DNA of 38,442 nt from Gammaproteobacteria bacterium (GTDB taxonomy: Bacteria > Pseudomonadota > Gammaproteobacteria > UBA4575), in the NCBI GenBank assembly GCA_028281205.1, contig JANQKJ010000022.1, positions 1-38,442 on the forward strand. Reading direction: 5' to 3'. Shown piece after piece: positions 1-19,357 of this stretch (position 1 is the first letter of the stretch; every line of letters begins with the position of its first letter). Under the pieces are notes generated by a model, which was not told the origin of the DNA, searched no databases, and saw only the letters and a program-made list of their open reading frames with translations. The position numbers and the translations under genes were made by a program.

Positions 1-658
1 TACCCTTATGAGGTAGAAATAGTCCACAACCAAAACTACGCCCTTCACCTATGCCTTGTTGCTGAAGTAATACCGACTCTGTTGGGTCAAGACCATCGAT
101 CATGAGACTGCGTGTAGTGAGAATTTTGTCTGGGAAGCGTAAGTTGGTAGTACGTCCACTCATCATTTTCTGTGGACGAATGTTTTTCTCGGCCAACAAT
201 TCTACCATCTCACTTAAAAAAGCAGTTTCATCCTCAATTTCATTGGCTAAGATGTAGCGTGCAAAGATAGTCGTTAATTTAGATAGTTTTCTAATAGTTG
301 GTTTCGAAAATTCTAGGGAAACATTACAGATTTGGATAGATTGTCCATCCAGGGCTTTGACATCATCGATATGTTCATGGGGTGTGCGGATTGTGAATAG
401 TGTTCTCCTCGAAGGGAATAGCAACTCATCAGGTTCGCTGGGTCGAATCCAGCCGTTACCAGACTCGGCGCCATGAATAAGATGTATTCCGGCACCAGTA
501 CTATCCTTTATCCAGGGTAGTTGGGAAAGAATGGCTTGCGAAAGAGGGTAGGCATGGTCAAGTGGTAATTGTGGACACTTTATTTTGAAGTTAACGTCGA
601 CGATGTCATCAGGGACTTCGTAGACAGCCTCTTTGTTATTATCGTCGTTCCAAAACAT
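1..658 (-). CDS. Cas6/Cmx6-like RAMP protein (CRISPR-type endoribonuclease fold); C-terminus cut by the window edge
   Basis: Absent from the supplied ORF track because it has no stop inside the window. My own translation of the minus strand from the ATG at 658-656 gives 219 sense codons down to position 2 with no in-frame stop: MFWNDDNNKEAVYEVPDDIVDVNFKIKCPQLPLDHAYPLSQAILSQLPWIKDSTGAGIHLIHGAESGNGW...LLQQQGIGEGRSFGCGLFLPHKG. GIGEGRSFGCG fits the Cas6 glycine-rich loop signature GhGxxxxxGhG exactly. The N-terminal LPLDH-aromatic segment and the GCGlFlP ending match my recollection of the subtype I-MYXAN Cas6/Cmx6 family. The ATG lies 2 nt after the stop of the upstream 64-aa ORF. Confidence 0.6.
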   Translation of the reverse strand, partial: MFWNDDNNKEAVYEVPDDIVDVNFKIKCPQLPLDHAYPLSQAILSQLPWIKDSTGAGIHLIHGAESGNGWIRPSEPDELLFPSRRTLFTIRTPHEHIDDVKALDGQSIQICNVSLEFSKPTIRKLSKLTTIFARYILANEIEDETAFLSEMVELLAEKNIRPQKMMSGRTTNLRFPDKILTTRSLMIDGLDPTESVLLQQQGIGEGRSFGCGLFLPHKG

Positions 659-660
659 AG

Positions 661-855
661 CTAGGACTGCCTGGCTGAGGTAAACACAGACTCTAGAATA
701 TCTTCCCAATCTTCAGGGGTATCTTTAAATGGTGGGCGTACATCCATTTGGAAAAAGATTTCACCTTGGGCAGCACGTTTTTTTATTTCGGCTTTTAATT
801 GTTCAAAGCTTTGCATGCTGTGATCCTGCATTAATATTTCGCTTAATGAGAGCAT
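661..855 (-). CDS. small acidic hypothetical protein (64 aa), middle gene of the TauD-like/Cas6-like operon
   Basis: ORF track entry. It starts 11 nt after the TauD-like stop and ends 2 nt before the Cas6-like ATG, so the packing is operon-like. The sequence is helical-looking and charged (QLKAEIKKRAAQGE...DTPEDWEDILESV). I recognise no family. An internal Met (MQDHSMQS...) could be the true start. Confidence 0.45.
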   Translation of the reverse strand: MLSLSEILMQDHSMQSFEQLKAEIKKRAAQGEIFFQMDVRPPFKDTPEDWEDILESVFTSARQS

Positions 856-866
856 TCTTTAATTAG

Positions 867-1739
867 CTATTTTATTTGGCTGAATAATCGATTATATGAA
901 CGAACACGATACATGAGGCGTTGTTGTTGAGGAATATTCCCATTTGTAAAGGCGCTACGCCCATGCAGTATATTGTTACAAACTAATCCCTCCCCAGGCT
1001 GTAGAGTGTAGTGCAACACATACTCGCTATCTGCTAATAATTCCTCAATTATGTCTACTGCACGTAGTAGGTCTTTATCTTGTTTCCATTGAATGCTTCG
1101 GGAGCGGGCGGTATAGCGCATCTGCAGAGTGTTTGTTGATGGGTCGCGATAAAAAACCGGGCCGCTTTGGGCGCTGCGAACCTCCACGCCATTTTCAATA
1201 TTAGCGGGAATAGTCAACGCATCTGGTTGACACAAAGCAGTGATCAAAGAGGGGGCTGTATCATATAACTGTATATATATAAGTTCATGATTTATAAGCA
1301 TATTCTCTCCTCCTTGCGCAGCATTACGCACGCAGTGGAGAAGAAATGAGCGAATATGCTGTGATAATGGGTTGTAGTAGCCATCCGTATGCCAATTAAG
1401 CGCTTTGCTAGTGTAAGGGATATAACCCTGAGCACGCCCTAGGTCCATGACCTCTAAAGAGGATATACTGTCATTATCCGCACATAAGTTCTGGTCTAGT
1501 TCGTACATGCTAAATTGCCTAGCCATAGTGGCTATGATCGATTTTTCACTAATATTAGAGTCGGAGAATCGATATAGTGCAAAATTATTTTGTCCACAGT
1601 GTTGCTTTAATAATGCCAGTTCGGCATCGCTGAGCGAGCTGGGATCGGCAATTAATACCGGTTTGAGTGAAGCTTGGCTAACTTTATGTGTTAGCTTATT
1701 TTCGCGCCACTCGCTATAGTTGTTTTCAAAGTCAAACAT
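867..1739 (-). CDS. TauD/TfdA-family Fe(II)/2-oxoglutarate-dependent dioxygenase
   Basis: 290-aa ORF. It carries the HxD facial-triad motif in a TauD-like context (ALNWHTDGYY) and a distal His followed by Arg (NNILHGRSAF). Length and layout are typical of taurine-dioxygenase-like enzymes. The substrate cannot be inferred. Confidence 0.8.
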   Translation of the reverse strand: MFDFENNYSEWRENKLTHKVSQASLKPVLIADPSSLSDAELALLKQHCGQNNFALYRFSDSNISEKSIIATMARQFSMYELDQNLCADNDSISSLEVMDLGRAQGYIPYTSKALNWHTDGYYNPLSQHIRSFLLHCVRNAAQGGENMLINHELIYIQLYDTAPSLITALCQPDALTIPANIENGVEVRSAQSGPVFYRDPSTNTLQMRYTARSRSIQWKQDKDLLRAVDIIEELLADSEYVLHYTLQPGEGLVCNNILHGRSAFTNGNIPQQQRLMYRVRSYNRLFSQIK

Positions 1740-2123
1740 TTAAAAGTTGGTAAATTTAAGTTTGCGAGCAGGTTAACGTTTTACTTAACTTTAGTAGGTT
1801 TTTCGCAGAGAGACTTTAGCATTAAATCTATATAGCTCCATTAGTCCGAATTGTGTATTGAAAAGTATGCCAAGCTTTTGAAATTTATATAAAAAATATG
1901 ATTTTCTGTATTACTAAAATACAGGGTTATTATAAAAATTTATGGCGCTATATCCCGGTTGAGATAAGGCTGTTAACCCCCCGCATCCCATAGGTAGGAT
2001 TTTGCTCATCAGCCGGCAACTCTAGACTTATTTACCTATATACAGCCGGCGGGAAGGCTGTCCTGCGCGTGGAATAACATAACCCCAAGTTAGAAATTAA
2101 CTGGTTAATTAGGAGAATTAAAA

Positions 2124-3389
2124 ATGGCTGACCAGCATCATGATACCCCAATGCTTGATGAGTTAGAAAACGGACCATGGCCAAGCTTTATATCTGGTTT
2201 TAAGCGTCTTCGTGATAAGCATGAAGATAAGAGAATTAGCGGAATGGCTAATGACTTACTCGGTCAATTAGAGCATTCATATGAAACGCGTAAAGGTTAC
2301 TGGAAAGGTGGAACAGTCAGTGTATTTGGTTATGGTTCTGGCATCATTCCACGTTTCTCTGAAGTAGGTGATGCTTTCCCAGAGTCGCGAGAATATCACA
2401 CTTTAAGAGTTCAGCCGCCAGCAGGAAACTATTACACGACAGACATGCTTCGACAGCTAGGTGATAGCTGGGAAAAATGGGGCTCAGGCATGGTTACTTT
2501 CCATGGCCAAACTGGAAACATTATGTTCATCGGTACATCTACCGAGAATACCCAACACTTTTTCGACGAGATTAACGAGTACGGTTGGGACTTAGGCGGT
2601 GCCGGTCCATGTGTGCGTACCGGAATGTCCTGTGTGGGTGCGGCACGTTGTGAAATGTCTGCACTTGATGAGATGAAAATTCATCGTACTTTACTAAATA
2701 ACTTCACTGACGATGTTCATCGTCCAGCACTTCCTTATAAATTCAAATTCAAAGTATCTGGCTGCGGTAATGACTGCATGAACTCAATTGAGCGTTCTGA
2801 TTTTGCCATCATTGGTACTTGGCGCGACGACATGAAAGTTGATCAGGAAGAAGTGAAGAAGTTTGTTGCACGCAAAGGTCGCGAATATGTAATCGATAAT
2901 GTCGTAACTCGTTGTCCAACAAAAGCGTTGTCGCTTAAAGATGACGATACTATGGAAGTTGATAACCGTAACTGCGTACGTTGTATGCATTGCATGAATG
3001 TTATGGTTAAAGCGCTTTCACCAGGTGATGACAAGGGTGCAACTATCCTTATCGGTGGTAAGCGTACTTTAAAGATTGGTGACTTGATGGGAACAGTAGT
3101 TGTCCCATTCATGAAACTTGACACTGAAGAAGATTATGAAAAGTTAACTGAATTGGCAGAAGAGACTATCGATTTCTGGGCTGAAAACGGCTTGGAGCAT
3201 GAACGCTGCGGCGAGATGGTCGAGAGAATTGGCCTGGTTAACTTCCTTGAAGGGGTCGGCATCGAAGTTGATCCAAATATGGTTAATGATCCTCGTCAAA
3301 GTTCGTATGTGCGTATGGACGGTTGGGACGAAGAAGCAGAGAAGTGGTTCCAGCGCAAAGCTGAAGAGAAAGCTGCGGCTGCAGGTTAA
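2124..3389 (+). CDS. dsrA: dissimilatory (reverse-type) sulfite reductase alpha subunit DsrA
   Basis: 421 aa. Siroheme/[4Fe-4S] cysteine motif C-x5-C...C-x3-C (SCVGAARC ... GCGNDC) and a ferredoxin insert (CPTKAL...NCVRCMHCMNV). AGGAGA Shine-Dalgarno upstream. First gene of a canonical dsrABEFHC order. Confidence 0.95.
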   Translation: MADQHHDTPMLDELENGPWPSFISGFKRLRDKHEDKRISGMANDLLGQLEHSYETRKGYWKGGTVSVFGYGSGIIPRFSEVGDAFPESREYHTLRVQPPAGNYYTTDMLRQLGDSWEKWGSGMVTFHGQTGNIMFIGTSTENTQHFFDEINEYGWDLGGAGPCVRTGMSCVGAARCEMSALDEMKIHRTLLNNFTDDVHRPALPYKFKFKVSGCGNDCMNSIERSDFAIIGTWRDDMKVDQEEVKKFVARKGREYVIDNVVTRCPTKALSLKDDDTMEVDNRNCVRCMHCMNVMVKALSPGDDKGATILIGGKRTLKIGDLMGTVVVPFMKLDTEEDYEKLTELAEETIDFWAENGLEHERCGEMVERIGLVNFLEGVGIEVDPNMVNDPRQSSYVRMDGWDEEAEKWFQRKAEEKAAAAG

Positions 3390-3436
3390 TTGTTGCTTCA
3401 AAAAACAGTTTTACATACAACTTTATTTAAATCACT

Positions 3437-3464
3437 AAAGCCTGCGTAATTTATGCAGGCTTTT
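3437..3464 (+). terminator. stem-loop in the dsrA-dsrB spacer (terminator/attenuator-like or mRNA-stabilising hairpin)
   Basis: aaagcctgc (3437-3445) pairs perfectly with gcaggcttt (3455-3463). The loop gtaatttat can add 3 more pairs. The 3' arm runs into TTTT. It sits in a 94-nt gap between two subunits of one enzyme. Confidence 0.35.
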
Positions 3465-3483
3465 AGTTCGGAGACAAAAAACA

Positions 3484-4557
3484 ATGGCACAAGAGCATAG
3501 ACCACCAATCGAATCGGGATGTCCCGACGGATTTCAATACATGCACCCCGTTATGCGTAAGAACTATGGTGACTGGGATTACCATGAACATCCACGTCCA
3601 GGTGTGCTGCTTCACGTAGCAAAAAATGGTGACCAGATCTGGACTGTACGTGCAGGGACACAACGTATATTAGATGTATTCACTCTACGTACACTGTGCG
3701 ATATTGGTGATAAGTATGCTGATGGTTATGTGCGCTTTACTATTCGTTCAAACATTGAATACATGGTAGCTGACGAAGCGAAAGTGCAACCAATGATCGA
3801 TGCGCTTGAAGCGGAAGGCTTTGTAGTTGGCGGTACTAAAAACTCAGTAGCAATGATCTCGCATACACAAGGCTGGTTGCATTGCGATATTCCTGGCACT
3901 GACGCGTCGGGAGTTGTTAAGGCAATGATGGATGAGCTGATTGATGAGTTCAAAGAAAACAACATGCCAAACCGTGTTCACATGACTACATCATGCTGCC
4001 AAATTAACTGTGGTGGACAAGGCGATATAGCAATTAACGTTCAACACACCAAGCCACCAAAAATTAATCATGATTTAGTTTCAAATGTTTGCGAACGACC
4101 TTCAGTTGTGGCGCGTTGCCCGGTGGCTGCAATTCGTCCCGCACAGGTTAATGGTAAGCCTTCATTGGAAGTGGATGAAAAGAAATGTATTTGTTGTGGT
4201 GCTTGCTTCCCACCATGCCCGCCAATGCAGATTAATGATGCTGAGCACACCAAACTTGCTATATGGGTTGGTGGTAATCACTCTAATGCACGTGGCAAGC
4301 CTACATTCCAAAAGCTAGTGGCTGCCGGTATTCCTAACAATCCACCACGCTGGCCAGAAGCAACAGCGATTGTTAAACGTATTTTACGCGCATATAAAGA
4401 TGATGCACGTGACTGGGAAAGAATTAATGATTGGGTCGAGCGTGTAGGTTGGCCACGATTCTTTGAATTAACTGGTCTTCCATTCACCAAGTTCCACATT
4501 GATAACTGGAGAGGTGCGCGTCGCAGTCTTAACTCTTCTACTCACATCCGTTTTTAA
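3484..4557 (+). CDS. dsrB: dissimilatory (reverse-type) sulfite reductase beta subunit DsrB
   Basis: 357 aa. TSCCQINCGG cysteine cluster and a ferredoxin domain (CPVAAIRP...CICCGACFPPCP). Positioned directly after dsrA. Confidence 0.95.
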   Translation: MAQEHRPPIESGCPDGFQYMHPVMRKNYGDWDYHEHPRPGVLLHVAKNGDQIWTVRAGTQRILDVFTLRTLCDIGDKYADGYVRFTIRSNIEYMVADEAKVQPMIDALEAEGFVVGGTKNSVAMISHTQGWLHCDIPGTDASGVVKAMMDELIDEFKENNMPNRVHMTTSCCQINCGGQGDIAINVQHTKPPKINHDLVSNVCERPSVVARCPVAAIRPAQVNGKPSLEVDEKKCICCGACFPPCPPMQINDAEHTKLAIWVGGNHSNARGKPTFQKLVAAGIPNNPPRWPEATAIVKRILRAYKDDARDWERINDWVERVGWPRFFELTGLPFTKFHIDNWRGARRSLNSSTHIRF

Positions 4558-4575
4558 GACTAGGGGAGTTTATTT

Positions 4576-4968
4576 GTGAAATTTGGGATCTTAGTTAACG
4601 AGGGGCCATATACCCATCAAGCGTCTGACTCAGCATATAAATTTGCTAAAGCCGCAATTGATAAAGGTCACGAAGTATTCCGCGTGTTCTTTTATCATGA
4701 TGGTGTAAATAACGGTACGGCACTTGCGGTGCCTCCACAGGATGATCGACATATCCCTAATCAGTGGTCGGAACTGGCTAAACAGCACAACGTGGATTTA
4801 GTGCTATGTGTAGCAGCAGCGCAGCGACGTGGAATGCTTGATGAGGATGAAGCCAAGCGTAATGGCAAGTCAGCCAACAATGTTGCGGAAGGCTTTCGTA
4901 TTTCTGGCCTTGGCCAGCTAATCGAAGCTGGTATTCAGGCAGATCGTTTGGTTGTGTTTGGCGACTAA
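4576..4968 (+). CDS. dsrE: sulfurtransferase complex subunit DsrE
   Basis: 130 aa, GTG start preceded by GGGGAG. MKFGILVNEGPY N-terminus and the conserved active-site Cys context (DLVLCVAAAQRRG), typical of the DsrE/TusD family. Confidence 0.9.
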   Translation: MKFGILVNEGPYTHQASDSAYKFAKAAIDKGHEVFRVFFYHDGVNNGTALAVPPQDDRHIPNQWSELAKQHNVDLVLCVAAAQRRGMLDEDEAKRNGKSANNVAEGFRISGLGQLIEAGIQADRLVVFGD

Positions 4969-4983
4969 GCAAGGAGAATAGAT

Positions 4984-5403
4984 ATGGAAGACGGTGATCA
5001 AGTCGTTAAAAAGTTTATGTACATGAACCGTAAAGCACCTTACGGAACAATCTATGCACTGGAGTCATTAGAGGTAGTGCTTATTGCTGCCGCTTTTGAT
5101 CAAGATGTGAGTCTTGTATTCGCAGACGATGGTGTTTATCAGTTAATGAAAGGTCAAGACACAGATGATATCGGGATGAAAAACTTTTCTCCCACATATT
5201 CTGCATTAGGTGACTATGACATTAAGAAAATCTACATCGAAAAAGAATCTCTTGAAGAGAGAGGTCTAACACTGGCAGATCTGCAAGAGCTGAAGTACGA
5301 AGATGAAGATGACGATTGGGCAGAAAAAGATTCTATTCATCTTGTTACGCGTGCCGAGCTTGCGGATGTTATTGATGCGCAAGATGTAGTATTTAGTTTT
5401 TAG
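4984..5403 (+). CDS. dsrF: sulfurtransferase complex subunit DsrF
   Basis: 139 aa. VVKKFMYMNRKAPYGTIYALESLEVVL matches the DsrF/TusC-type N-terminus as I remember it from Allochromatium. Position is between dsrE and dsrH. Confidence 0.9.
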   Translation: MEDGDQVVKKFMYMNRKAPYGTIYALESLEVVLIAAAFDQDVSLVFADDGVYQLMKGQDTDDIGMKNFSPTYSALGDYDIKKIYIEKESLEERGLTLADLQELKYEDEDDDWAEKDSIHLVTRAELADVIDAQDVVFSF

Positions 5404-5414
5404 AGGATTCGAAT

Positions 5415-5723
5415 ATGACAATGTTACACACAGTAAATAAGAGTCCATTTGAAAGAAACGCACTCGATTCATGTATAAGTTTAGCTAAAGCTGGCAGCTC
5501 CATACTGTTAACAGAAGATGGTGTTGTAGGTGCTATGCAGGGGACTTCGCACTCAAAGAAAATTGAGGAAGCGATGGCGAATATTTCATTTTATGTGCTT
5601 GGTCCTGATCTGAAAGCGCGCGGACTCAGCGAAAGTAATGTAGTAAATGGAGTCAAGGTAGTAGATTACAGCGGCTTTGTTGATTTGGCAGCAGATCATG
5701 AGTCCGTACAGTCGTGGTTGTAA
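5415..5723 (+). CDS. dsrH: sulfurtransferase complex subunit DsrH
   Basis: 102 aa, DsrH/TusB-like, with the conserved N-terminal Cys (ALDSCISLA). Third member of the dsrEFH triplet. Confidence 0.9.
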   Translation: MTMLHTVNKSPFERNALDSCISLAKAGSSILLTEDGVVGAMQGTSHSKKIEEAMANISFYVLGPDLKARGLSESNVVNGVKVVDYSGFVDLAADHESVQSWL

Positions 5724-5789
5724 ATGTTATCTGCTCGCGCATCAAATTTTAATTGTAATTAAACATAGTAATAAACTAGGAGAAACCAA

Positions 5790-6122
5790 ATGCCTATAGA
5801 AGTTGATGGCCAAAGTTATGAAACTGATGAAGAGGGTTATCTAGCCAATTTAAATGAATGGCGTCCTGAGCTTGCAACAGCAATGGCTCAAGCAGACGGC
5901 GCTGATTTAGACGAGAACCATTGGGAAGTAATTAACTTTCTTCGTGAGTACTACGAAGAGTATCAAATTGCACCAGCAGTACGTGTACTAACTAAAGCGA
6001 TTGGTAAAAAGCTTGGCAAAGATAAAGGCAATAGCAAATACTTATATGAGCTATTTCCATATGGCCCAGCTAAACAAGCGTGTAAGTACGCTGGCCTGCC
6101 CAAGCCAACAGGTTGCGTATAA
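5790..6122 (+). CDS. dsrC: sulfur-carrier / DsrAB substrate protein DsrC
   Basis: 110 aa. The C-terminal arm ...QACKYAGLPKPTGCV carries the two conserved cysteines (C-x10-C, penultimate-residue Cys). Strong SD (AGGAGA). Confidence 0.95.
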   Translation: MPIEVDGQSYETDEEGYLANLNEWRPELATAMAQADGADLDENHWEVINFLREYYEEYQIAPAVRVLTKAIGKKLGKDKGNSKYLYELFPYGPAKQACKYAGLPKPTGCV

Positions 6123-6159
6123 GAAACTCTGAAAATAGTTTTCAGCAAGCGTTTTGCCG

Positions 6160-6191
6160 GCGCTGTACTTACAGGTGCAGCGCTTGTTTGT
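6160..6191 (+). terminator. rho-independent-terminator-like hairpin after dsrC (probable partial terminator/attenuator inside the dsr cluster)
   Basis: gcgctgtac (6160-6168) pairs with gtgcagcgc (6175-6183): 9 bp including one G-U, with a 6-nt loop, followed by TTGTTTGT. A weaker AU hairpin, ctgaaaa-tag-ttttcag, lies at 6129-6145. Confidence 0.45.
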
Positions 6192-6246
6192 CCGCCGACA
6201 AAAAACTAAATTTTCAAAGTATCTTTTACACGGTTATTGTTAACTA

Positions 6247-6969
6247 ATGTCTATCTTATTCGCTATTTTATTTTATGCCGCAACGGCAATATTAGTGTTT
6301 GGTCTTGCATATCGTATTCGTAAATATATTAAGACCCCCGCACCTTTAAAGATTCCTACTACTCCTGCACCAACAAGTCGTTCTGGCGTTGCGTTTAGAA
6401 TGATTAAAGAAATAACTATTTTTGAAAGTTTATTTAAATCAAGCAAATGGACTTGGTTGTTTGGATGGTTATTCCACTTTGGATTGCTTTTAGTATTGCT
6501 GCGTCACTTGCGTTATTTCACTGAGCCAGTTTGGTGGTGGGTAGAGTTAATACAGCCTTTTGGAAAATATGCATCGATTGTCATGTTAGTTGGCTTAGGT
6601 GGATTATTGGTACGTCGAATCTTCGTCGACCGCGTGCGTTATATCTCAGCACCTTCAGATTACCTCATGTTGTTACTTATTATTGGTATTGGTGCAACGG
6701 GTGTACTTATGACATTTGTGACACATACAGATATTGTCACGCTTAAGAGCTACTTGTTAGGTTTGATGGTATTTGAAATTCGCACTATGCCGACTGATAT
6801 CGTTCTAATTATTCATTTGGCGCTAGTAATTTTATTAATGGCAATTTTCCCAATCTCAAAATTGTTACATGCCCCAGGTGTATTTTTTAGTCCGACTCGA
6901 AACCAGGTGGATAATCCTAGAGAACAGCGTCATATAGCGCCTTGGGCAGTTAAACTGGAGAGTAAATAA
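6247..6969 (+). CDS. dsrM: membrane dihaem cytochrome b DsrM (NarI/HdrE-like)
   Basis: 240 aa, multiple predicted TM helices with conserved His residues. Position is immediately before dsrK. Confidence 0.9.
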   Translation: MSILFAILFYAATAILVFGLAYRIRKYIKTPAPLKIPTTPAPTSRSGVAFRMIKEITIFESLFKSSKWTWLFGWLFHFGLLLVLLRHLRYFTEPVWWWVELIQPFGKYASIVMLVGLGGLLVRRIFVDRVRYISAPSDYLMLLLIIGIGATGVLMTFVTHTDIVTLKSYLLGLMVFEIRTMPTDIVLIIHLALVILLMAIFPISKLLHAPGVFFSPTRNQVDNPREQRHIAPWAVKLESK

Positions 6970-6971
6970 GC

Positions 6972-8516
6972 ATGGCTGCTGCAGAATTTGAAACACCAGA
7001 ATTAAGGGAATATCCCATTATTCCTAAGTTACAAAAAGGGACTATGGCACACAGCAAACCTTTTGTAGCTAAAGAACAGTTTCAAACACCGCTTGGATAT
7101 CCAGGAGAATTAGTCGATAACTGGAAACAAGTGGCGATAGATAAAATGGGTGAGCTCACAGAAAAGTATCGCTCATTACAAGTATTTTTAGATTCCTGTG
7201 TGAAGTGTGGTGCGTGTACTGATAAGTGTCATTACTATCTAGGTACTACCGACCCAAAAAATATGCCAGTCGCACGCCAGGACTTGTTCCGTAAAGTCTA
7301 TCGTCGTTACTACACACTGGCAGGCAAATTAGTACCAAAGCTAGTTGGTGCCGAAGATTTAACCGAGGAAGTGTTGGATGATTGGTACACCTACTTCCAT
7401 CAATGTTCACAATGTCGTCGCTGCTCTGTTTACTGCCCATACGGTATCGATACAGCTGAAATCTCAATGGCGGCACGTGAAGTCATGGATGCAGTAGGTA
7501 AGGGCCAAAAATACTGCAACGAAATTATTGGTAAGGCACAGACTTTAGGTAATAACCTTGGCCTGCCTGAGCCGGCATTAATCGACACACTTGAAGGTCT
7601 TGAAGAAGACATCGAAGATGAAACCGGTGTGCAGGTGAAAATGCCGCTCGATGTGAAAGGGGCTGAAGTATTGCTTATTACACCTTCGGCAGATTTTTTC
7701 GCCGAGCCTCATATTGATGGTTTGATTGGTTATGCGAAAGTTTTCCATGAGGCAGGTATTTCATGGACCATGAGTTCATATGCAAGTGAAGCAGCAAACT
7801 TCGGTATGTTTATCGGTAGTTATGAAAACATGCAGAAACTTGCTTTGCGTATTCGTAAAGCTGCGATTGACCTGGGTGTTAAACGCATAGTGTTTGGTGA
7901 ATGTGGACATGCATGGCGTGTTGCTTACAGTTTTCTTAATACCTTGGCAGGCCCATTCGATTTCTTGGATTCAAATTATCCTGTGCCACAGCATATATGC
8001 GAAGTTACGCACGGACTCATTCAGGAAGGTAAAATTAAATTAGATAAGTCAGAGAATGATCATATGACTCTGACTTACCACGATTCATGTAATGTTGCAC
8101 GCGCATCACGTATGGGTGATACCGCGGGGGGGCAATTCACTATACCACGCGACATTATTAAAGCATGCTGTAATAACTTTTACGATATGCCGGAGTATTC
8201 AATTAAAGAAGGCACCTACTGCTGTGGCGGAGGAGGAGGCCTGCTGACAGACGATTTAATTGAACTGCGTGTTAAAGGCGCGATGCCACGCATGCAAGCA
8301 CTTAAACATGTTACAGAGAATAATGGTGTAACTCATATGGCAGCAATTTGTGCCATATGTAAGAGCCAGTTCTCTAAAGTATTTCCATACTATGACTTTA
8401 CGATGGATCAGATTGTTAGTGTCCATCAGCTAGTCAGTAATGCCATTGTTTTAACTGGTCAAAATGATGGTAAAAGTGATGAAGAAGATTCAACAGACGC
8501 TGAACAAGCAGCTTAA
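6972..8516 (+). CDS. dsrK: Fe-S protein DsrK (HdrD-like, CCG domain)
   Basis: 514 aa. Two 4Fe-4S motifs (CVKCGACTDKC, CSQCRRCSVYCP) and CCG-domain cysteines (YHDSCN ... YCCGGGGG). Confidence 0.9.
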   Translation: MAAAEFETPELREYPIIPKLQKGTMAHSKPFVAKEQFQTPLGYPGELVDNWKQVAIDKMGELTEKYRSLQVFLDSCVKCGACTDKCHYYLGTTDPKNMPVARQDLFRKVYRRYYTLAGKLVPKLVGAEDLTEEVLDDWYTYFHQCSQCRRCSVYCPYGIDTAEISMAAREVMDAVGKGQKYCNEIIGKAQTLGNNLGLPEPALIDTLEGLEEDIEDETGVQVKMPLDVKGAEVLLITPSADFFAEPHIDGLIGYAKVFHEAGISWTMSSYASEAANFGMFIGSYENMQKLALRIRKAAIDLGVKRIVFGECGHAWRVAYSFLNTLAGPFDFLDSNYPVPQHICEVTHGLIQEGKIKLDKSENDHMTLTYHDSCNVARASRMGDTAGGQFTIPRDIIKACCNNFYDMPEYSIKEGTYCCGGGGGLLTDDLIELRVKGAMPRMQALKHVTENNGVTHMAAICAICKSQFSKVFPYYDFTMDQIVSVHQLVSNAIVLTGQNDGKSDEEDSTDAEQAA

Positions 8517-8554
8517 CTAAATTTTAAACGGATAGTGTAACTAGGAGCAAAGTT

Positions 8555-10507
8555 ATGGCTACATCAAAGGATGACATGTCTTACAAACTTACGTTTCGCA
8601 AGTTTGATGATGGTGACCACCTATGGGGTAATTTTGGTGATCAAATTTTCGAAGGTGATGAATCACATAAGTGTCCTACTTACGTGCATCGTACACCACC
8701 CTGTCAGGGTAGCTGTCCTTCAGGTGAAGATATTCGCGGCTGGTTGGATATTGTTAGAGGAATAGAGAAACCACCTGAAGGTGTCACAATGCAGGAGTAT
8801 GCATTCCGTCGCTCCACGGATGCTAATCCTTTTCCATCGATGATGGGCCGGGTTTGTCCTGCGCCTTGCCAGGAAGGTTGTAACCGCAATCATGTAGAAG
8901 ATTTTGTTGGCATCAACTCAGTCGAGCAATATATCGGCGATACAGCGACAAAAGAAGGCTTTAAGTATCAGGCCCCTGCTAATTTAAGCGGTAAGCGTGT
9001 TGCAATAATTGGTGGTGGTCCCGCAGGTCTGTCGGCAGCTTATCAACTACGTCGTAAAGGCCATGCCAGTATAATCTTTGATGATCATGATGAATTGGGA
9101 GGTATGTTTAAATATGGCATTCCTGGTTACCGTACACCGCGTGATTTTCTGGATGCTGAAATTCAACGTATCTTAGATATGGGTGATATTGAAGTGCGTC
9201 TAAATACACGTGTTGGTCGTGACATATCAGTTGCAGATATAGAGAAAGAATTTGATGCCATCGTATGGGCGCTAGGTTGCCAATCTGGACGCGGTTTGCC
9301 TGTGCCTAACGGTGACGCACCCAATTGTGTCGCTGGAGTTAAATTTTTAGAGGCGTTTAATAAAGGCATTTTGAAAGTCACTGCGGACCGCGTGGTATGT
9401 GTCGGTGGTGGTGATACCTCAATTGACGTGGTTTCGGTTGCACGTCGCTTGGGTAAGATTCCAACACTCGACAAAAAAGAAGCGCCTGAGTATGTGATTG
9501 GCGGTTACGTTGCTCATGATGCTGCTTATGCCGCTGCACGTGAAGGTGCGGAAGTGACATTGACCTCACTGTTTGAGCGCGAAGAAATGACAGCGGCTGA
9601 GCATGAAGTGCATGATGCGCTTCATGAAGGTGTACGTATTGATAATGGTGTGATGCCAATAGAAGTCATTGTTAACGATGAAGGGCGTGCGACCGCGTTA
9701 CGTATGGCGAAATGTGAAATGAAAGATGGGCGTCCTACACCTGTTGAAGGGACTGAATATGACATCGAGTGCGATTTAATTGTTTCTGCAATTGGTCAAG
9801 GTGGAGACTTGGATGGGCTTGAAGATTTTGATAATGGCCGTGGATTAATTGATGCTGACAAGCATTATCAAGTGCCAGGCAAAGAGGGCCACTTTGTGTG
9901 TGGTGATATTATTCGTCCACACTTGTTAACAACAGCGATTGGACAAGCATCCATTTGTGCCGATAGTGTTGATTTGTATCTAAATAACAAAGAATATGAA
10001 AAACGTCCTAAAGTCGATGTACATCACTTTAGTCTGCTGGAAAAATTACAAGAAACTGGATTAGACCCTGAAGATTACACTGTAGGTGAAACACGTGGTT
10101 CTGATGAAGCTTCTTTCTCAGTACATAACTATGAAGATCGTTCTGCGCAAGAAATTATTTCTGCAGATCGCCTATTCTTAGCACACTTCGAGTATACACC
10201 ACGCGTATTGAGAGATTCTGTTGTGCCTAGCTCCGAAGAAGTACTTGGGCATTTTGAAGAGCGCATGATTGGTCTTACTGAAGAGCAGGCTGTTGAAGAA
10301 GCGGGCCGTTGTATGAGCTGTGGTATGTGTTTCGAGTGTGATAACTGTGTTGTGTACTGTCCTCAAGATGCTGTGTTCCGAGTCAAGAAAGATAAATCTA
10401 CAACTGGTCGTTACGTAGATACAAATTATAATAAGTGTATTGGTTGTCATATTTGTGCTGATGTGTGTCCTACAGGGTACATTGATATGGCGCTTGGCGA
10501 CCACTAA
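8555..10507 (+). CDS. dsrL: Fe-S flavoprotein DsrL (GltD-like NAD(P)H oxidoreductase with C-terminal ferredoxin domain)
   Basis: 650 aa. Dinucleotide-binding folds (VAIIGGGPAGLSAA, VCVGGGDTSIDV). C-terminal 2x[4Fe-4S] domain (CMSCGMCFECDNCVVYCP, CIGCHICADVCP). Position is between dsrK and dsrJ. Confidence 0.9.
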   Translation: MATSKDDMSYKLTFRKFDDGDHLWGNFGDQIFEGDESHKCPTYVHRTPPCQGSCPSGEDIRGWLDIVRGIEKPPEGVTMQEYAFRRSTDANPFPSMMGRVCPAPCQEGCNRNHVEDFVGINSVEQYIGDTATKEGFKYQAPANLSGKRVAIIGGGPAGLSAAYQLRRKGHASIIFDDHDELGGMFKYGIPGYRTPRDFLDAEIQRILDMGDIEVRLNTRVGRDISVADIEKEFDAIVWALGCQSGRGLPVPNGDAPNCVAGVKFLEAFNKGILKVTADRVVCVGGGDTSIDVVSVARRLGKIPTLDKKEAPEYVIGGYVAHDAAYAAAREGAEVTLTSLFEREEMTAAEHEVHDALHEGVRIDNGVMPIEVIVNDEGRATALRMAKCEMKDGRPTPVEGTEYDIECDLIVSAIGQGGDLDGLEDFDNGRGLIDADKHYQVPGKEGHFVCGDIIRPHLLTTAIGQASICADSVDLYLNNKEYEKRPKVDVHHFSLLEKLQETGLDPEDYTVGETRGSDEASFSVHNYEDRSAQEIISADRLFLAHFEYTPRVLRDSVVPSSEEVLGHFEERMIGLTEEQAVEEAGRCMSCGMCFECDNCVVYCPQDAVFRVKKDKSTTGRYVDTNYNKCIGCHICADVCPTGYIDMALGDH

Positions 10508-10630
10508 TCACGCAGGCTGCAAACGTCGATTACGTTATTAAAAACGAACTCGAAATACTCACTTATTATTTTATAAGCTCCGTTTTCTTGTTCGTTTTTG
10601 CCGTGTACTCAACGTTTTCGCAGAGCGTGA
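10508..10630. repeat. nested inverted repeats in the 200-nt dsrL-dsrJ spacer (structured RNA/DNA element)
   Basis: Inner perfect 10-bp arms aaaaacgaac (10540-10549) and gttcgttttt (10590-10599). Outer imperfect arms are 10508-10526 and 10612-10630 (tcacgc/gcgtga, ctgc/gcag, aaacgt/acgttt, with bulges). A small cttat...ataag hairpin sits in the centre. Confidence 0.4.
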
Positions 10631-10707
10631 GATAAGTCGAAAATAATTACTAAGTAGAGTTATTCCCGCGAAAGTTGGGATCTAGAAAAATGATAAATTA
10701 GAAGAAT

Positions 10708-11214
10708 ATGATTGGAGTCACTCGTATTAACGTTCTATGGAATGTTTCAATAGCGCTGTTGTTATTTTTTTTGAGCGCACCATTGATCGCTGACGGCAGT
10801 AAAGTCCCGCCGCCCAAAGGTGACCAGTGTGTTGAAGATCCAGAGTGGATGCGTGTTAAACACTTCGAGACTGTGTTACATCAGCGTGATGAAACAGTAA
10901 TAAGAGGTATTCGTACTGAAAAGCATAGTTTAAAAAATTGTATTGAATGTCATATCACACCTAATGCCAATGGCGACTATGCGCGTTATTCAAATAGCGA
11001 AGAGCATTTTTGCGCAAGCTGTCATACTTATGCAGCTGTAGCTATAGATTGTTTTCAATGTCATGCTGACCGCCCTGAATCTGCTATACGCGAGGCGCTT
11101 AAGCGCCAACAGGCAGACGGAACTGATCCACATCAAGGCTTACAGATGAGTGCTAATGACTTAATATTAAAATCCAATTTACAATCAAATCTATCATCGG
11201 CACAGTCAAAATGA
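10708..11214 (+). CDS. dsrJ: periplasmic trihaem cytochrome c DsrJ
   Basis: 168 aa, N-terminal signal/anchor. Three CxxCH motifs (CIECH, CASCH, CFQCH) plus an upstream conserved Cys (GDQCVED), consistent with the His/Cys-ligated haem known for DsrJ. Confidence 0.9.
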   Translation: MIGVTRINVLWNVSIALLLFFLSAPLIADGSKVPPPKGDQCVEDPEWMRVKHFETVLHQRDETVIRGIRTEKHSLKNCIECHITPNANGDYARYSNSEEHFCASCHTYAAVAIDCFQCHADRPESAIREALKRQQADGTDPHQGLQMSANDLILKSNLQSNLSSAQSK

Positions 11215-12005
11215 ATAAAGTAGTTACTAAAGCTTATCAATTACTAAGGCAGCCAAAAGCAAAAGTTGAGCAAGAGATAGATCAAAGCAAGCGTTCTTTT
11301 GTTGGTGGTTTGGTAGGTGCGTCAGGGCTAGCCATAGCGCCTGGGGTCATGTTGTATGAAACGGCCAGCGCAAAGCCTGCAGACCAGCCAGTTACAAATG
11401 CAGTTCGATGGGGAATGTTAGTTAATGTTAATCAATGTACGGAAGATTGCAATGCTTGTGTGACTGCGTGTAATGATGAACATGGTCTATGGCCTGAAGA
11501 AGGTTCCACAACCGATTCTCAGTGGATAAGAAAACTAACTGTTAAAGATCCAACAACTAATCACAGCAAGTCATTTCCTGTTATGTGTCAACACTGTGAA
11601 CACCCTCCATGTGTGGATGTATGCCCAACACGCGCTTCATTTAAGCGTGAAGATGGTATTGTGCTAGTGAATATGCACACATGTATTGGTTGTCGATATT
11701 GCATGATGGCATGCCCATATAAAGCGCGTTCATTTGTACATGAGGTCTTAGAAAATCAACTGCCAAGCACTCCACGAGGTAAAGGCTGTGTTGATTCATG
11801 CAATATGTGTGTGCACAAAGTGGATGCTGGTGAAAATACCACGGCATGTGCCGAGGCGTGCGCCACAGATGGACATCAAGCCATAGTATTTGGTGACCTT
11901 AATGATCCTGAAAGTGAAATTTCAAAGAGTCTAAGAGATTTTGGTGGCACCCAAATCCGCGCTGATCTTGGCTTAAACACCGGCGTCAGATATCAAGGCA
12001 TATAA
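11211..12005 (+). CDS. dsrO: periplasmic 4x[4Fe-4S] ferredoxin DsrO (NrfC/PsrB-like)
   Basis: 264 aa, ATGA overlap with dsrJ. Tat-like signal (SKRSFVGGLVGASGLAIAPG). Four Cys clusters (CTEDCNACVTAC, CQHCEHPPCVDVCP, CIGCRYCMMACP, CNMCVHK...CAEAC). Confidence 0.9.
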   Translation: MNKVVTKAYQLLRQPKAKVEQEIDQSKRSFVGGLVGASGLAIAPGVMLYETASAKPADQPVTNAVRWGMLVNVNQCTEDCNACVTACNDEHGLWPEEGSTTDSQWIRKLTVKDPTTNHSKSFPVMCQHCEHPPCVDVCPTRASFKREDGIVLVNMHTCIGCRYCMMACPYKARSFVHEVLENQLPSTPRGKGCVDSCNMCVHKVDAGENTTACAEACATDGHQAIVFGDLNDPESEISKSLRDFGGTQIRADLGLNTGVRYQGI

Positions 12006-12009
12006 TACG

Positions 12010-13215
12010 ATGGAAACAGTTAGATACAGCTCTATAGCAGCAAACTCAGCGAAATTTTGGGCATTACTTATTGGTTTGGGTTCAATCACGCTTATTGGTT
12101 TATTGTCTGCGCATCACATGGAAGTAGAAGGCCACATTATTTCGGGTATGAATAATCAAATCGTATGGGGCTTGCCACATGTATTTGCAATTTTCCTGAT
12201 TGTCGCTGCTTCTGGTGCGCTTAATGTGGCATCAATCGCTTCTGTGTTTGGCAAAGTTGAATACAAACCCCTGGCACGCTTATCGGCCTTACTGGCATTG
12301 GCTTTGTTGGCAGGTGGTTTAGCAGTATTGGTGCTTGATCTTGGTCGGCCAGATCGTCTCATAGTAGCGATGACGGTTTATAATTTTAAGTCGATCTTTG
12401 CGTGGAATATCTTTTTATATACTGGCTTCTTCGTCATTGTTGGTATCTATCTATGGTGGATGATGGATTACAGCATGCAGAAGTATAGTAAGAAAGCTGG
12501 TTTAGTTGCATTTATCTGGCGTGTAATTCTGACTACAGGTACTGGCTCAATTTTTGGTTTCCTGGTCGCACGCAGTGCCTATGACACAGCTATGTTAGCG
12601 CCTATGTTTATTATTATGTCGTTTGCCTTTGGTATGGCGTTCTACATCTTGGTTTTGCTTGCTGCCTACTCATGGACTAATCGTCCGTTAGGCGATTTTA
12701 TTCTGAATAAGCTGCGTAGCTTGCTCGGGGTTTTTATCGCCAGCATTATGTATTTCGTAGTGGTTTATCATTTAACAAATTTATATGCCACAGAGCACCA
12801 TCAAGTTCAGAAGTTCTTGTTGCTTGAAGGTGGTTCATACACCGCTATGTTTTGGATAGGCCAAGTGATTATTGGGGGCTTGATACCATTGGCACTGATA
12901 TATATGCCACAAACTAAAAACTGTCGTAAAACACTGGTAGCAGTTTGTACTATGGTAATTCTAGGTGGTTTGGCTCAAGTCTACGTGATAGTTATTGGTG
13001 GTCAGGCGTTTCCACTTGAGTTATTCCCTGGTATGGAAATAAGCAGTTCATTTTTTGATGGTCAGGTAATTCAATATATACCGAGTATTTGGGAAATTCT
13101 GCTTGGTATTGCAGGTGTTGCCATTGCTTTGTTGCTAGTTACTGTCGGAGTTGCTGTGCTTGATTTTCTGCCTGATAGTCTGTCAGATAAAATTACAGCT
13201 GAAATTAAAAAATAA
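12010..13215 (+). CDS. dsrP: integral membrane quinone-interacting subunit DsrP (NrfD/PsrC family)
   Basis: 401 aa, about ten hydrophobic segments. Follows dsrO by 4 nt. Last gene of the dsrMKJOP module. Confidence 0.9.
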   Translation: METVRYSSIAANSAKFWALLIGLGSITLIGLLSAHHMEVEGHIISGMNNQIVWGLPHVFAIFLIVAASGALNVASIASVFGKVEYKPLARLSALLALALLAGGLAVLVLDLGRPDRLIVAMTVYNFKSIFAWNIFLYTGFFVIVGIYLWWMMDYSMQKYSKKAGLVAFIWRVILTTGTGSIFGFLVARSAYDTAMLAPMFIIMSFAFGMAFYILVLLAAYSWTNRPLGDFILNKLRSLLGVFIASIMYFVVVYHLTNLYATEHHQVQKFLLLEGGSYTAMFWIGQVIIGGLIPLALIYMPQTKNCRKTLVAVCTMVILGGLAQVYVIVIGGQAFPLELFPGMEISSSFFDGQVIQYIPSIWEILLGIAGVAIALLLVTVGVAVLDFLPDSLSDKITAEIKK

Positions 13216-13426
13216 CCCTTAAAAATAACCCCAAGATCGCTAGGCAATTAAAATTGAAAAATTTGCCGCGATAATTCTATGTGAAGCTAATCACACTTTT
13301 GCATTTATCAGTTAAAGAAATCTATTCACTGCCGAAAACCTTGCTGTCACGCCGTAATCTAGACTGATGTCTAGTTCGAGTGAGTTATCCTAAAATTAAT
13401 AAAATATTATTATTCGGAGGCAATCC

Positions 13427-13657
13427 ATGCATGTGGAAATGAGTCTTGATGCCGAGGCAGTAGAATCACCACCCGAGAGCGATGTTAAACCTACAGACAC
13501 ACAGACTATTTCCGGTAGTCAAGTGGCAGCAGCGTTTGCGCGTATCGAAAAGAGTGATAAAGAAAATAAATCTGGCACCATGCAGACACTGGTAATTTCA
13601 GTTGCAGCAGTACTGTCGGTAGTTTCTTTGTATTTAATATTCGTATTAGTGTTGTAA
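13427..13657 (+). CDS. small tail-anchored membrane protein (76 aa), unassigned
   Basis: GGAGG (13416-13420) lies 6 nt before the ATG. The N-terminal half is acidic and low-complexity. A single hydrophobic helix (LVISVAAVLSVVSLYLIFVLVL) forms the extreme C-terminus. No family recognised. Confidence 0.5.
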   Translation: MHVEMSLDAEAVESPPESDVKPTDTQTISGSQVAAAFARIEKSDKENKSGTMQTLVISVAAVLSVVSLYLIFVLVL

Positions 13658-13694
13658 ACTATTACCAGTTAAGTTGAATTTTGGACGGGTAATT

Positions 13695-19212: not shown

Positions 19213-19357
19213 ATCTATAATGCAAACTTAAAGTAGTCTCTAAGCAAGCGCTATCAAGCTATTAATAAATTTAATTTTTCCTCTTATATTACTCTGCAAA
19301 AGTCTTCTAAGTAACTGTCTTACAAGACAAAAATCCCGATAAACGGCACAATTTAGC

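Follow-up and report, generated by a model that had tools for sequence, protein, structure and literature searches.

A Cas6-family protein found outside CRISPR loci belongs to the conserved dsrQ operon of Gamma- and Betaproteobacterial sulfur oxidisers

The gene at the left edge of the window (the whole 38,442-nt stretch of DNA analysed here) encodes Cas6L, almost certainly a genuine Cas6-family protein that is independent of CRISPR, the absence of CRISPR being judged at the level of the locus. Genes of the Cas6L clade are consistently part of the dsrQ operon, in which dsrQ is followed by genes for a 64-aa protein, Cas6L, a DsrC/TusE-like protein devoid of cysteines and a 67-aa protein. This operon is divergent from a reverse dsr operon that occupies the next 11 kb of the window (Table 1), and its carriers are sulfur-oxidising Gamma- and Betaproteobacteria. 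We favour, with a probability of about 0.55 for the whole statement including the mechanism proposed below, the reading that Cas6L is an exapted Cas6 serving in an accessory module of the Dsr pathway. A function tied to this pathway is very probable; the predicted RNA-binding role is advanced more tentatively, at somewhat less than even odds.

Table 1. Position of the features discussed in the text, in window coordinates.
Feature	Position	Strand	Basis and remarks
Cas6L	1..658	-	219 of 229 codons inside the window; gene truncated by the left edge
64-aa acidic protein	661..855	-	pI 4.6; found in 79/80 species loci; N-terminus conserved from Met1
dsrQ, TauD/TfdA-family Fe(II)/2-oxoglutarate dioxygenase	867..1739	-	PF02668, E=4e-21; first gene of the operon
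Divergent dsrQ/dsrA control region	1740..2123	.	Alignments, motif scans
TATAAT, candidate -10 box of the dsrQ operon	1929..1934	-	Read from the sequence, inferred
Palindrome TATCCCGGTTGAGATA, probable double-stranded DNA operator	1951..1966	.	Family consensus TAYCYC-N4-GRGRTA
Conserved block TCCCATAGGTAGGATTTTG, probable activator site (inferred)	1986..2004	+	Overlaps the -35 position of the putative dsrA promoter
TAGACT, -10-like box of dsrA	2023..2028	+	Lineage variants TAGAAT, TAAAAT, TACAAT, TACACT
Reverse-type dsr operon dsrABEFHCMKLJOP	2124..13215	+	ORFs; Pfam for DsrL and DsrP; Pfam labels in relatives

The frame of 219 codons that the original prediction had read on the minus strand, from position 658 to the left edge, is indeed open and runs off that edge; full-length relatives have 229 aa, so that only about 10 residues of Cas6L are missing. 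Its visible C-terminal end is ...GIGEGRSFGCGLFLPHKG, and the sequence LPLDHA lies close to the N-terminus. This segment and the glycine-rich-loop signature GhGxxxxxGhG had been proposed as Cas6 features, and both can be read in the protein, the latter as GIGEGRSFGCG at residues 202-212. Among 140 diverse sequences G210 of this loop is invariant and G202, G204 and G212 are near-invariant. The kinship with Cas6 extends to strong profile and structural matches. Cas6L scores 188.2 bits (E=1.9e-55; cut-off 26.7) against the Pfam Cas6 family PF09559, 1.7e-55 against PADLOC Cas6 models and 112.8 bits against NCBIfam TIGR02807 (cas6_cmx6). The last value exceeds the equivalog cut-off of 98.85, which is why public (NCBI) records call the gene Cas6/Cmx6. 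The AF2 model (pLDDT 92.4, pTM 0.88) displays the beta-alpha-beta pattern twice, as two tandem ferredoxin-like (RRM) domains. Its best Foldseek match is the type I-B Cas6 8fcj_B (E=2.9e-16, TM 0.73-0.77), and all 39 PDB matches at E<=1e-3 are Cas6, Cse3 or Cas6e. A dN/dS of 0.031, calculated against locus L003, indicates strong purifying selection. His35, at the beta1-alpha1 junction, is kept in at least 90% of the 140 diverse members and is replaced by Asn in the closest CRISPR-type relatives; from its position in the secondary structure it is the putative counterpart of the Cas6 catalytic His.

The best matching structure, the type I-B / 'I-MYXAN' Cas6 (Cmx6) of a cyanobacterial CRISPR-associated transposon (PDB 8fcj chain B), belongs with Cas6L to PF09559 and TIGR02807. 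The two proteins align over their full length (E=3e-19) and have in common the double ferredoxin-like fold and the loop LQxxGxGxxxxxCGxF, which in the Cas6L clade takes the form LQxxGxGxxxxGCGxF. Residues R85, R91 and R134 of Cas6L are also found in CRISPR-type Cas6. Other traits set the two groups apart. The median pI is 5.98 in the Cas6L clade (n=261) and 9.25 in CRISPR-linked relatives (n=98), LPxDHA stands where CRISPR-type Cas6 has PLDNGY, and the loop GxGxxRxxGCG corresponds to GIGGKRKMMCG of the CRISPR type, with loss of the KRK residues. Most Cas6L members carry in addition a near-invariant insert of 9-11 aa, ..SGNGWxRP, that is absent from CRISPR-type Cas6; a Comamonadaceae subclade has no GNGW insert.

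The genomic context also differs from that of type I-B Cas6, Cas6L adjoining dsr genes with no cas8 (devT), cas7, cas5, TniQ or CRISPR array nearby. No cas8 (devT/csx13), cas7 (devR), cas5 (devS), cas3 or adaptation genes were found in the 38-kb window, and no tandem or spaced direct repeats either there or within ±10 kb of the gene in loci L002 and L005; the repeat search and the ORF/Pfam survey agree with the original prediction, which saw neither CRISPR nor cas in the window. The ORFs scanned by Pfam, or annotated by Pfam at the same place in relatives, have dsr or housekeeping functions; the remaining segment at 19.4-38 kb was assigned to a cell-division/cell-wall cluster from gene order and two Pfam matches (MraW, PBP). 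The one contig found to be identical to the window's own spans 2.2 kb. The flank to the left of position 1 was therefore read not from the contig itself but from loci L003 and L004, whose Cas6L is 96% identical, and contains there the DsrC-like gene and small ORFs without cas genes. Past this edge, where the original prediction had allowed for a CRISPR locus, near-identical and distant relatives alike show neither array nor cas; cas genes are absent within ±10 kb of L002-L005 and ±8 kb of L086-L089. A CRISPR-linked PF09559 member used as control (L090) is located in a cas6-devT(cas8)-cas7-cas5 arrangement. The literature searched contains nothing that links Cas6, PF09559 or Cmx6 to dsr, and no experimental work on any of the five operon proteins.

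Relatives of Cas6L occur at 468 places in a one-genome-per-species collection, and, at 90% identity, one search counted 1576 protein clusters for the Gammaproteobacterial branch and another 914 for the Betaproteobacterial one. The dsr-linked clade, defined by E<=1e-30, makes up about 225 of the 1335 protein clusters of the family at 50% identity. The triad of dsrQ, small ORF and Cas6L pointed out in the original prediction is conserved across hundreds of species. Next to Cas6L are found dsrQ in 73 of 74 species loci, the small ORF in 79 of 80 and the DsrC-like gene in 72 of 73, the gene of the 67-aa protein likewise in 72 of 73, and dsrA is divergent in 61 of 63; two loci (L072, L074) have the triad without adjacent dsrAB. 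The linkage is still seen at about 30-35% Cas6L identity and outlasts permuted gene order in Rhodoferax and Polaromonas (Comamonadaceae). It also appears when the search starts from the dioxygenase, with Cas6L in 53 of 61 DsrQ loci; no dsrAB was seen in the 8 others, 5 of which had an upstream flank sufficient to judge.

This distribution bears on the idea that Cas6L is an ordinary crRNA-processing enzyme acting in trans for a CRISPR-Cas system elsewhere, near dsr by chance or hitch-hiking. The gene does pass the TIGR02807 cut-off and bears the NCBI name Cas6/Cmx6, RAMPs of COG1853/COG5551 are often encoded outside cas operons (Makarova et al. 2006, PMC1462988), and Cas6 genes are sometimes found at the periphery of cas operons or outside them (PMC1462988). 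Such a role is nevertheless extremely improbable: in Gamma- as in Betaproteobacteria the gene stays linked to dsrQ and dsrAB, even where identity falls to about 30% or the gene order is permuted, no cas genes lie within ±10 kb, and charge and motifs have diverged from CRISPR-linked members; a dN/dS of 0.03 and high cross-species identity are moreover atypical of fast-evolving Cas proteins. Cas-derived proteins outside adaptive immunity are likewise represented by type IV and Tn7-associated Cascades, solo Cas4 and the RAMP-like COG1851. Those cases are related to mobile elements or defence, whereas Cas6L is chromosomal and linked to a housekeeping energy-metabolism operon, with no source of guide RNA in sight. 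The absence of CRISPR and cas past the left edge, the strong similarity to Cas6 and the conservation of the triad together uphold the predicted exaptation of a Cas6 to a non-CRISPR role; the alternative of a minimal CRISPR-like system found no support.

The first gene of the operon had been recognised as a Fe(II)/2OG dioxygenase, in keeping with its PF02668 match. The residues H117, D119, H259, R261 and R274 (HxD...H...R), among them the iron triad and a 2OG-binding Arg, are invariant in 15 diverse sequences aligned, predicting an intact active site and an O2- and 2-oxoglutarate-dependent activity. DsrQ matches no substrate-specific NCBIfam equivalog, the best being TmpA, TMLD and BBOX at 40-54 bits against cut-offs of 268-415, and its sequence matches in the PDB are weak. 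In PMC7596348 the name dsrQ, credited to Lenk et al. 2012, designates a tauD-like gene divergent from dsrA in aerobic sulfur oxidisers; the citing texts (PMC7596348; bioRxiv 10.1101/197269) handle it as a single gene of unknown function. The window ORF, a tauD-family gene that lies upstream of dsrA in the opposite orientation, is this published dsrQ. Here, in contrast to those texts, it heads a conserved five-gene operon together with a Cas6 homologue and a Cys-less DsrC-like protein. The identity with dsrQ, the reverse-dsr neighbour and the continuation of the operon by the DsrC-like gene and the 67-aa ORF are context that was absent from the original prediction.

The stop codon of dsrQ (867-869) lies 11 nt from the ATG of the small ORF (855-853), whose own stop (661-663) is separated by 2 nt from the ATG of Cas6L (658-656). 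These gaps are as first described and, with the stop/start overlap present in the operon of locus L087, suggest that the genes are translationally coupled. The 64-aa acidic ORF is real: its dN/dS is 0.024, the N-terminus MLxLSE(I/V)L is kept from Met1 wherever the ORF is encoded, and of the 85 loci searched by tblastn 84 gave a match, each beginning at residue 1. The 51-aa start of public gene callers is consequently too short. The protein has no match in Pfam, NCBIfam or PADLOC. In some lineages its place is taken by DUF6967; homology between the two was rejected, BLAST giving no alignment, and they may be analogues.

The DsrC-like partner matches PF04358 (E=1e-34) and also TIGR03342, the TusE/DsrC family. 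Compared with the DsrC/TusE/RspA family it retains the C-terminal arm ..LFPxxPSKQ..GLP.., and it ends in ...(R/G)KGGY, the KGGY being the same in all 119 unique sequences. It has neither of the two redox cysteines and so cannot transport sulfur in the manner of DsrC or TusE; in this it resembles a Cys-less group, 'RspA', that PMC8477390 mentions. Variant loci L086, L087 and L089 have no DsrC-like gene.

We propose that the five products would act together, as an accessory to the oxidative Dsr pathway or as a module regulating it, in sulfur oxidisers exposed to oxygen. Cas6L most likely retains the ancestral hairpin-gripping scaffold, with its glycine-rich loop, conserved arginines and a His at the presumed catalytic position, and this scaffold would bind and perhaps cut cellular RNA. 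Obvious candidates would be a structured 5' leader or intercistronic regions of dsr or dsrQ transcripts, on which Cas6L might act while docked to its translationally coupled partners. The acidic shift and the lost basic loop residues weaken a reading in terms of RNA binding or processing. The most specific form of the proposal, a Cas6 domesticated as a chromosomal factor that works with a dioxygenase and a decoy DsrC in RNA-level control of reverse-Dsr expression or assembly, is conceivable and rather unlikely.

The same traits invite a different view, in which nucleic-acid binding was lost and Cas6L became a protein adaptor or chaperone, without RNA, whose scaffold joins DsrQ, the small acidic protein and the DsrC-like protein. 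Cas6L could, for example, present the ...RKGGY arm to DsrQ for O2-dependent hydroxylation, and this modification could tune a decoy DsrC competing with true DsrC at DsrAB or DsrEFH. The acidic pI with loss of basic G-loop residues, the clade-specific ..SGNGWxRP insert, the tight translational coupling and co-occurrence whatever the gene order, the invariant C-terminal arm of the DsrC-like partner, a DsrQ active site that is intact yet has no substrate-specific equivalog match, and searches near the locus that yielded no RNA ligand all argue for an adaptor. They have to be balanced against the fact that the residues best conserved with CRISPR-type Cas6 are those that contact RNA, namely the glycine-rich loop and the arginines, that the Comamonadaceae subclade without the GNGW insert keeps the same partners, and that some variants do without the DsrC-like gene. 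We regard the adaptor as possible but doubtful.

DsrC and DsrEFH are homologous to TusE and TusBCD of the tRNA thiolation relay. This homology, the match of the partner to the TusE/DsrC family model and the pairing of a Cas6 fold with an oxygenase evoke an RNA-modification module. Cas6L would recognise a stable RNA, for instance a tRNA, on which DsrQ would hydroxylate a nucleoside; the TusE/DsrC-like protein would provide the contact between tRNA and enzyme, as in the Tus/MnmA 2-thiouridine relay. Against this, the operon is linked to dsrAB and not to tRNA-modification genes, the DsrC-like protein is without the cysteine required for sulfur transfer, and we know of no TauD-family enzyme acting on RNA; hydroxylation of a nucleoside and a Tus-like contact are both improbable.

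The dsrQ/dsrA control region measures about 290-640 nt in nearly all loci. The block around the candidate dsrQ -10 box is conserved within the group of the window, and a palindrome, the one non-coding motif that is strongly conserved, sits between the two putative -10 boxes. It has one match in the window against 0.03 expected, its position is fixed in 71 of 85 loci, and it is also present in 26 of 46 independent metagenome loci. A Cas6-type RNA hairpin was considered for this element and rejected: full pairing holds for 20 of 33 unique variants in the dsrQ sense and 18 of 33 in the dsrA sense, and the pairing pattern prefers neither strand. C/A combinations are common (11/33 unique variants), meaning that the half-sites vary independently, as in a double-stranded DNA operator. 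Searches for other RNA ligands gave, in Rfam near the locus, just RNase P RNA 17 kb away and chance-level matches. The intergenic gaps of dsr hold no repeated hairpin that could pass for a 'mini-repeat', only ordinary terminator-like ones, and a shared 5'-leader structure for dsrA was rejected as well, the leaders being structured but lineage-specific.

Cas6L could itself be the transcription factor that acts on this TAYCYC-N4-GRGRTA palindrome. The operator accompanies the module in most Gammaproteobacterial loci, including L087 and L089 where the DsrC-like gene is absent, and a second copy lies within the operon in the window's group. It was not found, however, in Comamonadaceae loci that retain Cas6L, the protein is acidic, and to our knowledge Cas6 folds do not bind double-stranded DNA. 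Other candidate binders exist, such as DsrC, which reportedly binds the dsr promoter of Allochromatium vinosum. A direct regulatory role of Cas6L at the operator is very improbable.

The large and strongly conserved clade described here has departed from CRISPR-Cas and offers a clean natural experiment on the reuse of the RAMP fold. The 'type I-MYXAN Cas6/Cmx6' calls made in sulfur oxidisers, which number in the thousands, mislead as to function and will cause 'orphan cas genes' or 'degenerate CRISPR systems' to be overcounted. The enigmatic dsrQ becomes part of a defined five-gene module with a KGGY-tailed, Cys-less DsrC and a conserved operator, which makes its role and the control of rDsr in aerobic sulfur oxidisers testable in cultivable Rhodoferax, Polaromonas and Gammaproteobacterial carriers. 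If the reading of RNA-level control were true, Cas6L would be the first Cas6 dedicated to a cellular RNA and free of any link to CRISPR, defence or mobile elements, and the long-unexplained dsrQ locus would gain a function.

Cas6L, the product of the Cas6-like gene cut by the left edge of the window, is a bona fide Cas6-fold protein that is independent of CRISPR and forms a fixed component of the dsrQ operon at the oxidative dsr cluster. Its gene is the frame of 219 open codons described in the original prediction, and it is missing from the ORF track used there because the ORF listing omits frames that run off an end. About 10 residues lie beyond the window, full-length relatives being 229 amino acids long. 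The Cas6 identity proposed from sequence reading is borne out by a whole-length match to Pfam PF09559 'Cas6' (E=1.9e-55, 188 bits) and by a score of 112.8 bits to NCBIfam TIGR02807 'type I-MYXAN Cas6/Cmx6' (curated cut-off 98.85). A profile of 20 Cas6L relatives hits a single family in the PDB, aligning end to end with the top match 8fcj_B (E=3e-19), the Cas6 of a cyanobacterial type I-B CRISPR-associated transposon. The AlphaFold2 model obtained with 140 diverse relatives as input (pLDDT 92.4, pTM 0.88) leads Foldseek to the same first match (E=2.9e-16, TM 0.73/0.77), followed exclusively by other Cas6, Cse3 and Cas6e structures.

Tandem or spaced repeats are found neither in the window nor within 10 kb on either side of the gene in L002 and L005, two relative loci whose Cas6L proteins are 96% and 73% identical, in keeping with the absence of CRISPR context noted originally. 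Cas6L aside, all window ORFs with a Pfam call, here or for the same gene in relatives, belong to dsr or housekeeping functions (FAD oxidase, SIS, YraN, LpoA, RsmI, MraW, a PBP, DciA); the remainder of the cell-division and cell-wall cluster and lpxC are assigned by gene order alone. Instead of the cas genes or CRISPR array that might have stood left of position 1, relatives carry a DsrC-like gene, small ORFs, a phosphoribosyltransferase gene and a YbiX-type dioxygenase gene. The control locus, a cyanobacterial PF09559 member of Rippkaea PCC 8801, lies within cas6-devT(cas8)-cas7-cas5 and adjoins tniQ. That Cas6L serves CRISPR in trans is unlikely. The window also encodes a class A bacterial RNase P RNA (Rfam RF00010, 328 bits) between rsmI and the mraZ/dcw cluster.

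The 290-long TauD-family protein (PF02668) is encoded divergently from dsrA, the first gene of the dsrABEFHCMKLJOP operon. The name dsrQ was given by Lenk et al. 2012 to a tauD-like gene placed exactly so, as related in texts citing that work (PMC7596348). These texts report the gene, with no known function, from the majority of aerobic chemotrophic sulfur oxidisers (PMC7596348; bioRxiv 10.1101/197269). No literature on a Cas6 homologue beside dsrQ was found among the searchable papers, in which Lenk et al. 2012 is represented by citing texts. Residues H117, D119, H259, R261 and R274 are kept in the 15 diverse DsrQ sequences aligned (15/15); this active site marks DsrQ as a competent Fe(II)/2-oxoglutarate oxygenase. 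None of the substrate-specific NCBIfam models fits it, and its PDB sequence matches are weak. A part for Cas6L in RNA modification is improbable. Stand-alone DsrQ-like TauD paralogues, 43-47% identical, occur at two loci with neither Cas6L nor dsr genes nearby, one beside rhomboid and NB-ARC genes and the other beside PEP-CTERM and COX1 genes. The dsr operon of the window stops at dsrP, with no dsrN, dsrR or dsrS after it; in Allochromatium vinosum the dsr operon encodes DsrR and DsrS, post-transcriptional regulators of that operon. Strong terminator-like hairpins with T-runs are present in the dsrA-dsrB and dsrC-dsrM gaps and may be attenuation or mRNA-stability elements setting subunit stoichiometry.

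Scanning one genome per species located 468 sites that encode a Cas6L relative. The best 80 of these loci, with Cas6L identities from 84% to 46%, were fetched and their neighbours identified by tblastn, counting for each neighbour the loci with enough flank. The grouping of dioxygenase, small ORF and Cas6L suspected originally is conserved in nearly all of them, together with further genes (Table). The YbiX/PKHD-type Fe(II)/2OG dioxygenase gene (NF003975, 246 bits) lies immediately past the operon, so that with dsrQ the locus holds two different O2-dependent dioxygenases. Cas6L genes as distant as about 30-35% identity (L086-L089) still adjoin dsrQ and dsrAB, with differing accessory genes: DUF6967 takes the place of the 64-aa protein, and a further protein of about 240 residues and a ThiF-like gene occur. 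When metagenome contigs are instead scanned with a DsrQ profile, Cas6L is encoded downstream of DsrQ in 47 of the 61 loci with sufficient downstream sequence. Six others have the permuted order DUF6967-like, Cas6L, DsrC-like, 209-aa protein, DsrQ, in a clade that is Comamonadaceae (Rhodoferax, Polaromonas) going by NCBI names. The remaining 8, which have no Cas6L, show no dsrAB either, the upstream flank being adequate in 5 of them; two that were inspected have unrelated contexts. The gene content is thus kept despite rearrangement and across two proteobacterial classes, which argues strongly for functional coupling. The triad is not invariably tied to dsrAB and can exist apart from it: L072 and L074 carry the triad, and a distance of 5-6 kb around it contains no dsrAB. 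The DsrC-like gene is missing from L074 too, and the downstream flank of L072 is too short to judge. In L002 (JGI contig, 243 kb, positions 1-20690) dsrQ encodes a shortened product of 220 aa and stands about 4 kb from dsrA, with unrelated genes in between, and dsrBEFHCMK lies on the opposite side; this reflects either a true rearrangement or a chimeric assembly.

Table. Positions and occurrence of features of the dsrQ-Cas6L locus and its relatives
Feature	Position (strand)	Occurrence or remark
Cas6L gene	window 658-1 (-)	
dsrQ	window 867-1739 (-)	upstream of Cas6L, 73/74 loci
64-aa ORF	window 661-855 (-)	near Cas6L, 79/80 species loci
Divergent dsrA		within 4 kb of Cas6L, 61/63 loci
dsrABEFHCMKLJOP	window 2124-13215	
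DsrC-like gene	L005:10768-11109 and 118 other loci	directly past the window's left edge; downstream of Cas6L, 72/73 loci
67-aa ORF (orf67)		near Cas6L, 72/73 loci
YbiX-type Fe/2OG dioxygenase gene	L005:12675-13355 (-)	near Cas6L, opposite strand, 54/63 species loci
TATAAT	window 1934-1929	opposite sense to TAGACT
Palindrome TAYCYC-N4-GRGRTA, 16 bp	window 1951-1966	one match vs 0.03 expected
Conserved block TCCCATAGGTAGGATTTTG	window 1986-2004	
-10-like TAGACT	window 2023-2028	variants solely TAGAAT, TAAAAT, TACAAT, TACACT
Second palindrome copy CATCTCGATAGGGATA	L003:4458-4473, L005:11138-11153, equivalents	between DsrC-like gene and orf67
Hairpin, dsrA-dsrB gap	window 3434-3470	
Hairpin, dsrC-dsrM gap	window 6155-6190	
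Stretch following dsrP	window 13216-13694	no dsrN, dsrR or dsrS
RNase P RNA	window 18860-19214 (+)	
DsrQ-like paralogues	L139:5917-6864, L155:5974-6888	

The spacing of the operon was read correctly from the start: 11 nt separate the tauD-like stop from the ATG of the 64-aa ORF, whose own stop lies 2 nt before the Cas6L ATG. This small ORF (dN/dS 0.024, pI 4.6) is a real gene. Public gene calls start it 13 codons late, at an internal Met whose Shine-Dalgarno is better, and so give it 51 aa. That the true product has 64 aa is shown by the N-terminus, which is conserved, first Met included, in every locus where tblastn finds the ORF (84 of 85 searched). The DsrC-like protein matches PF04358 and TIGR03342. 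Like DsrC it keeps the flexible arm, but it has no cysteines at all and, both redox cysteines being absent, cannot carry sulfur. Its C-terminus is invariant in 119 unique sequences (...GLP(E/Q)Sx(R)KGGY or ...PQPxGKGGY), an end of GG plus one residue reminiscent of sulfur-carrier proteins whose C-terminus has to be trimmed. In L087 and L088 the module is followed by a ThiF-like E1 gene.

Of the 1335 clusters at 50% identity that a whole-library profile search returned, 225 have E-values of 1e-30 or lower, and the best 150 all resemble the window protein. When 261 dsr-linked members are compared with 98 cyanobacterial CRISPR-type members, the former have a median pI of 5.98 and the latter of 9.25; LPxDHA replaces PLDNGY as N-terminal motif, and the glycine-rich loop reads GxGxxRxxGCG rather than GIGGKRKMMCG. 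A ..SGNGWxRP insert of 9-11 aa, absent from the CRISPR-type proteins, is usual in the dsr-linked clade and missing from its Comamonadaceae subclade. The LQxxGxG...CGxF loop and three arginines are common to the two groups, and at least 90% of 140 diverse members have His35. The dN/dS values against the closest relative (Cas6L 0.031, DsrQ 0.139, DsrA 0.009) point to strong purifying selection on Cas6L.

The dsrQ-dsrA spacer (384 nt here, about 290-640 nt in nearly all loci) holds invariant blocks at constant spacing across most Gammaproteobacterial loci. The palindrome coincides with the -35 position of the putative TATAAT promoter and, with the second block and the -10-like box, looks like an operator/activator architecture for divergent promoters. 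Of 85 loci, 71 have the palindrome, as do 26 of 46 independent metagenome loci, and it is not found in the Comamonadaceae group. As a Cas6-bound RNA hairpin it fares poorly: 20 vs 18 of 33 variants are fully paired, favouring neither strand, and many variants combine C with A. The better reading is hence a DNA operator between two divergent promoters, one that Cas6L itself is unlikely to bind. The second copy, found in the window's group, suggests that the 67-aa ORF has a regulated promoter of its own inside the operon. Searches for Rfam families near the locus, for a repeated hairpin in the dsr gaps and for a leader structure common to dsr loci found none.

These empty searches for an RNA ligand would suit a Cas6L acting purely as a protein adaptor, as would the acidic shift of the dsr-linked clade, its new insert, the loss of basic residues from the glycine-rich loop and the translational coupling; we consider this role less likely than not and slightly less probable than RNA binding. 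Because the glycine-rich loop, the arginines and His35 are retained, we privilege, with a probability of about 0.4, a Cas6L that would bind, and possibly cleave, dsr or dsrQ transcripts. Both the protein family and dsrQ are already in databases, the former under a CRISPR label and the latter as a single gene without known function. What appears new, and undescribed in the searchable literature, is a large CRISPR-free Cas6 clade within a conserved five-gene Dsr-linked module. From its O2-dependent enzyme, its decoy DsrC and the control region common with dsrA, we infer that the dsrQ operon would serve the rDsr pathway of sulfur oxidisers exposed to oxygen as an accessory or regulatory module.
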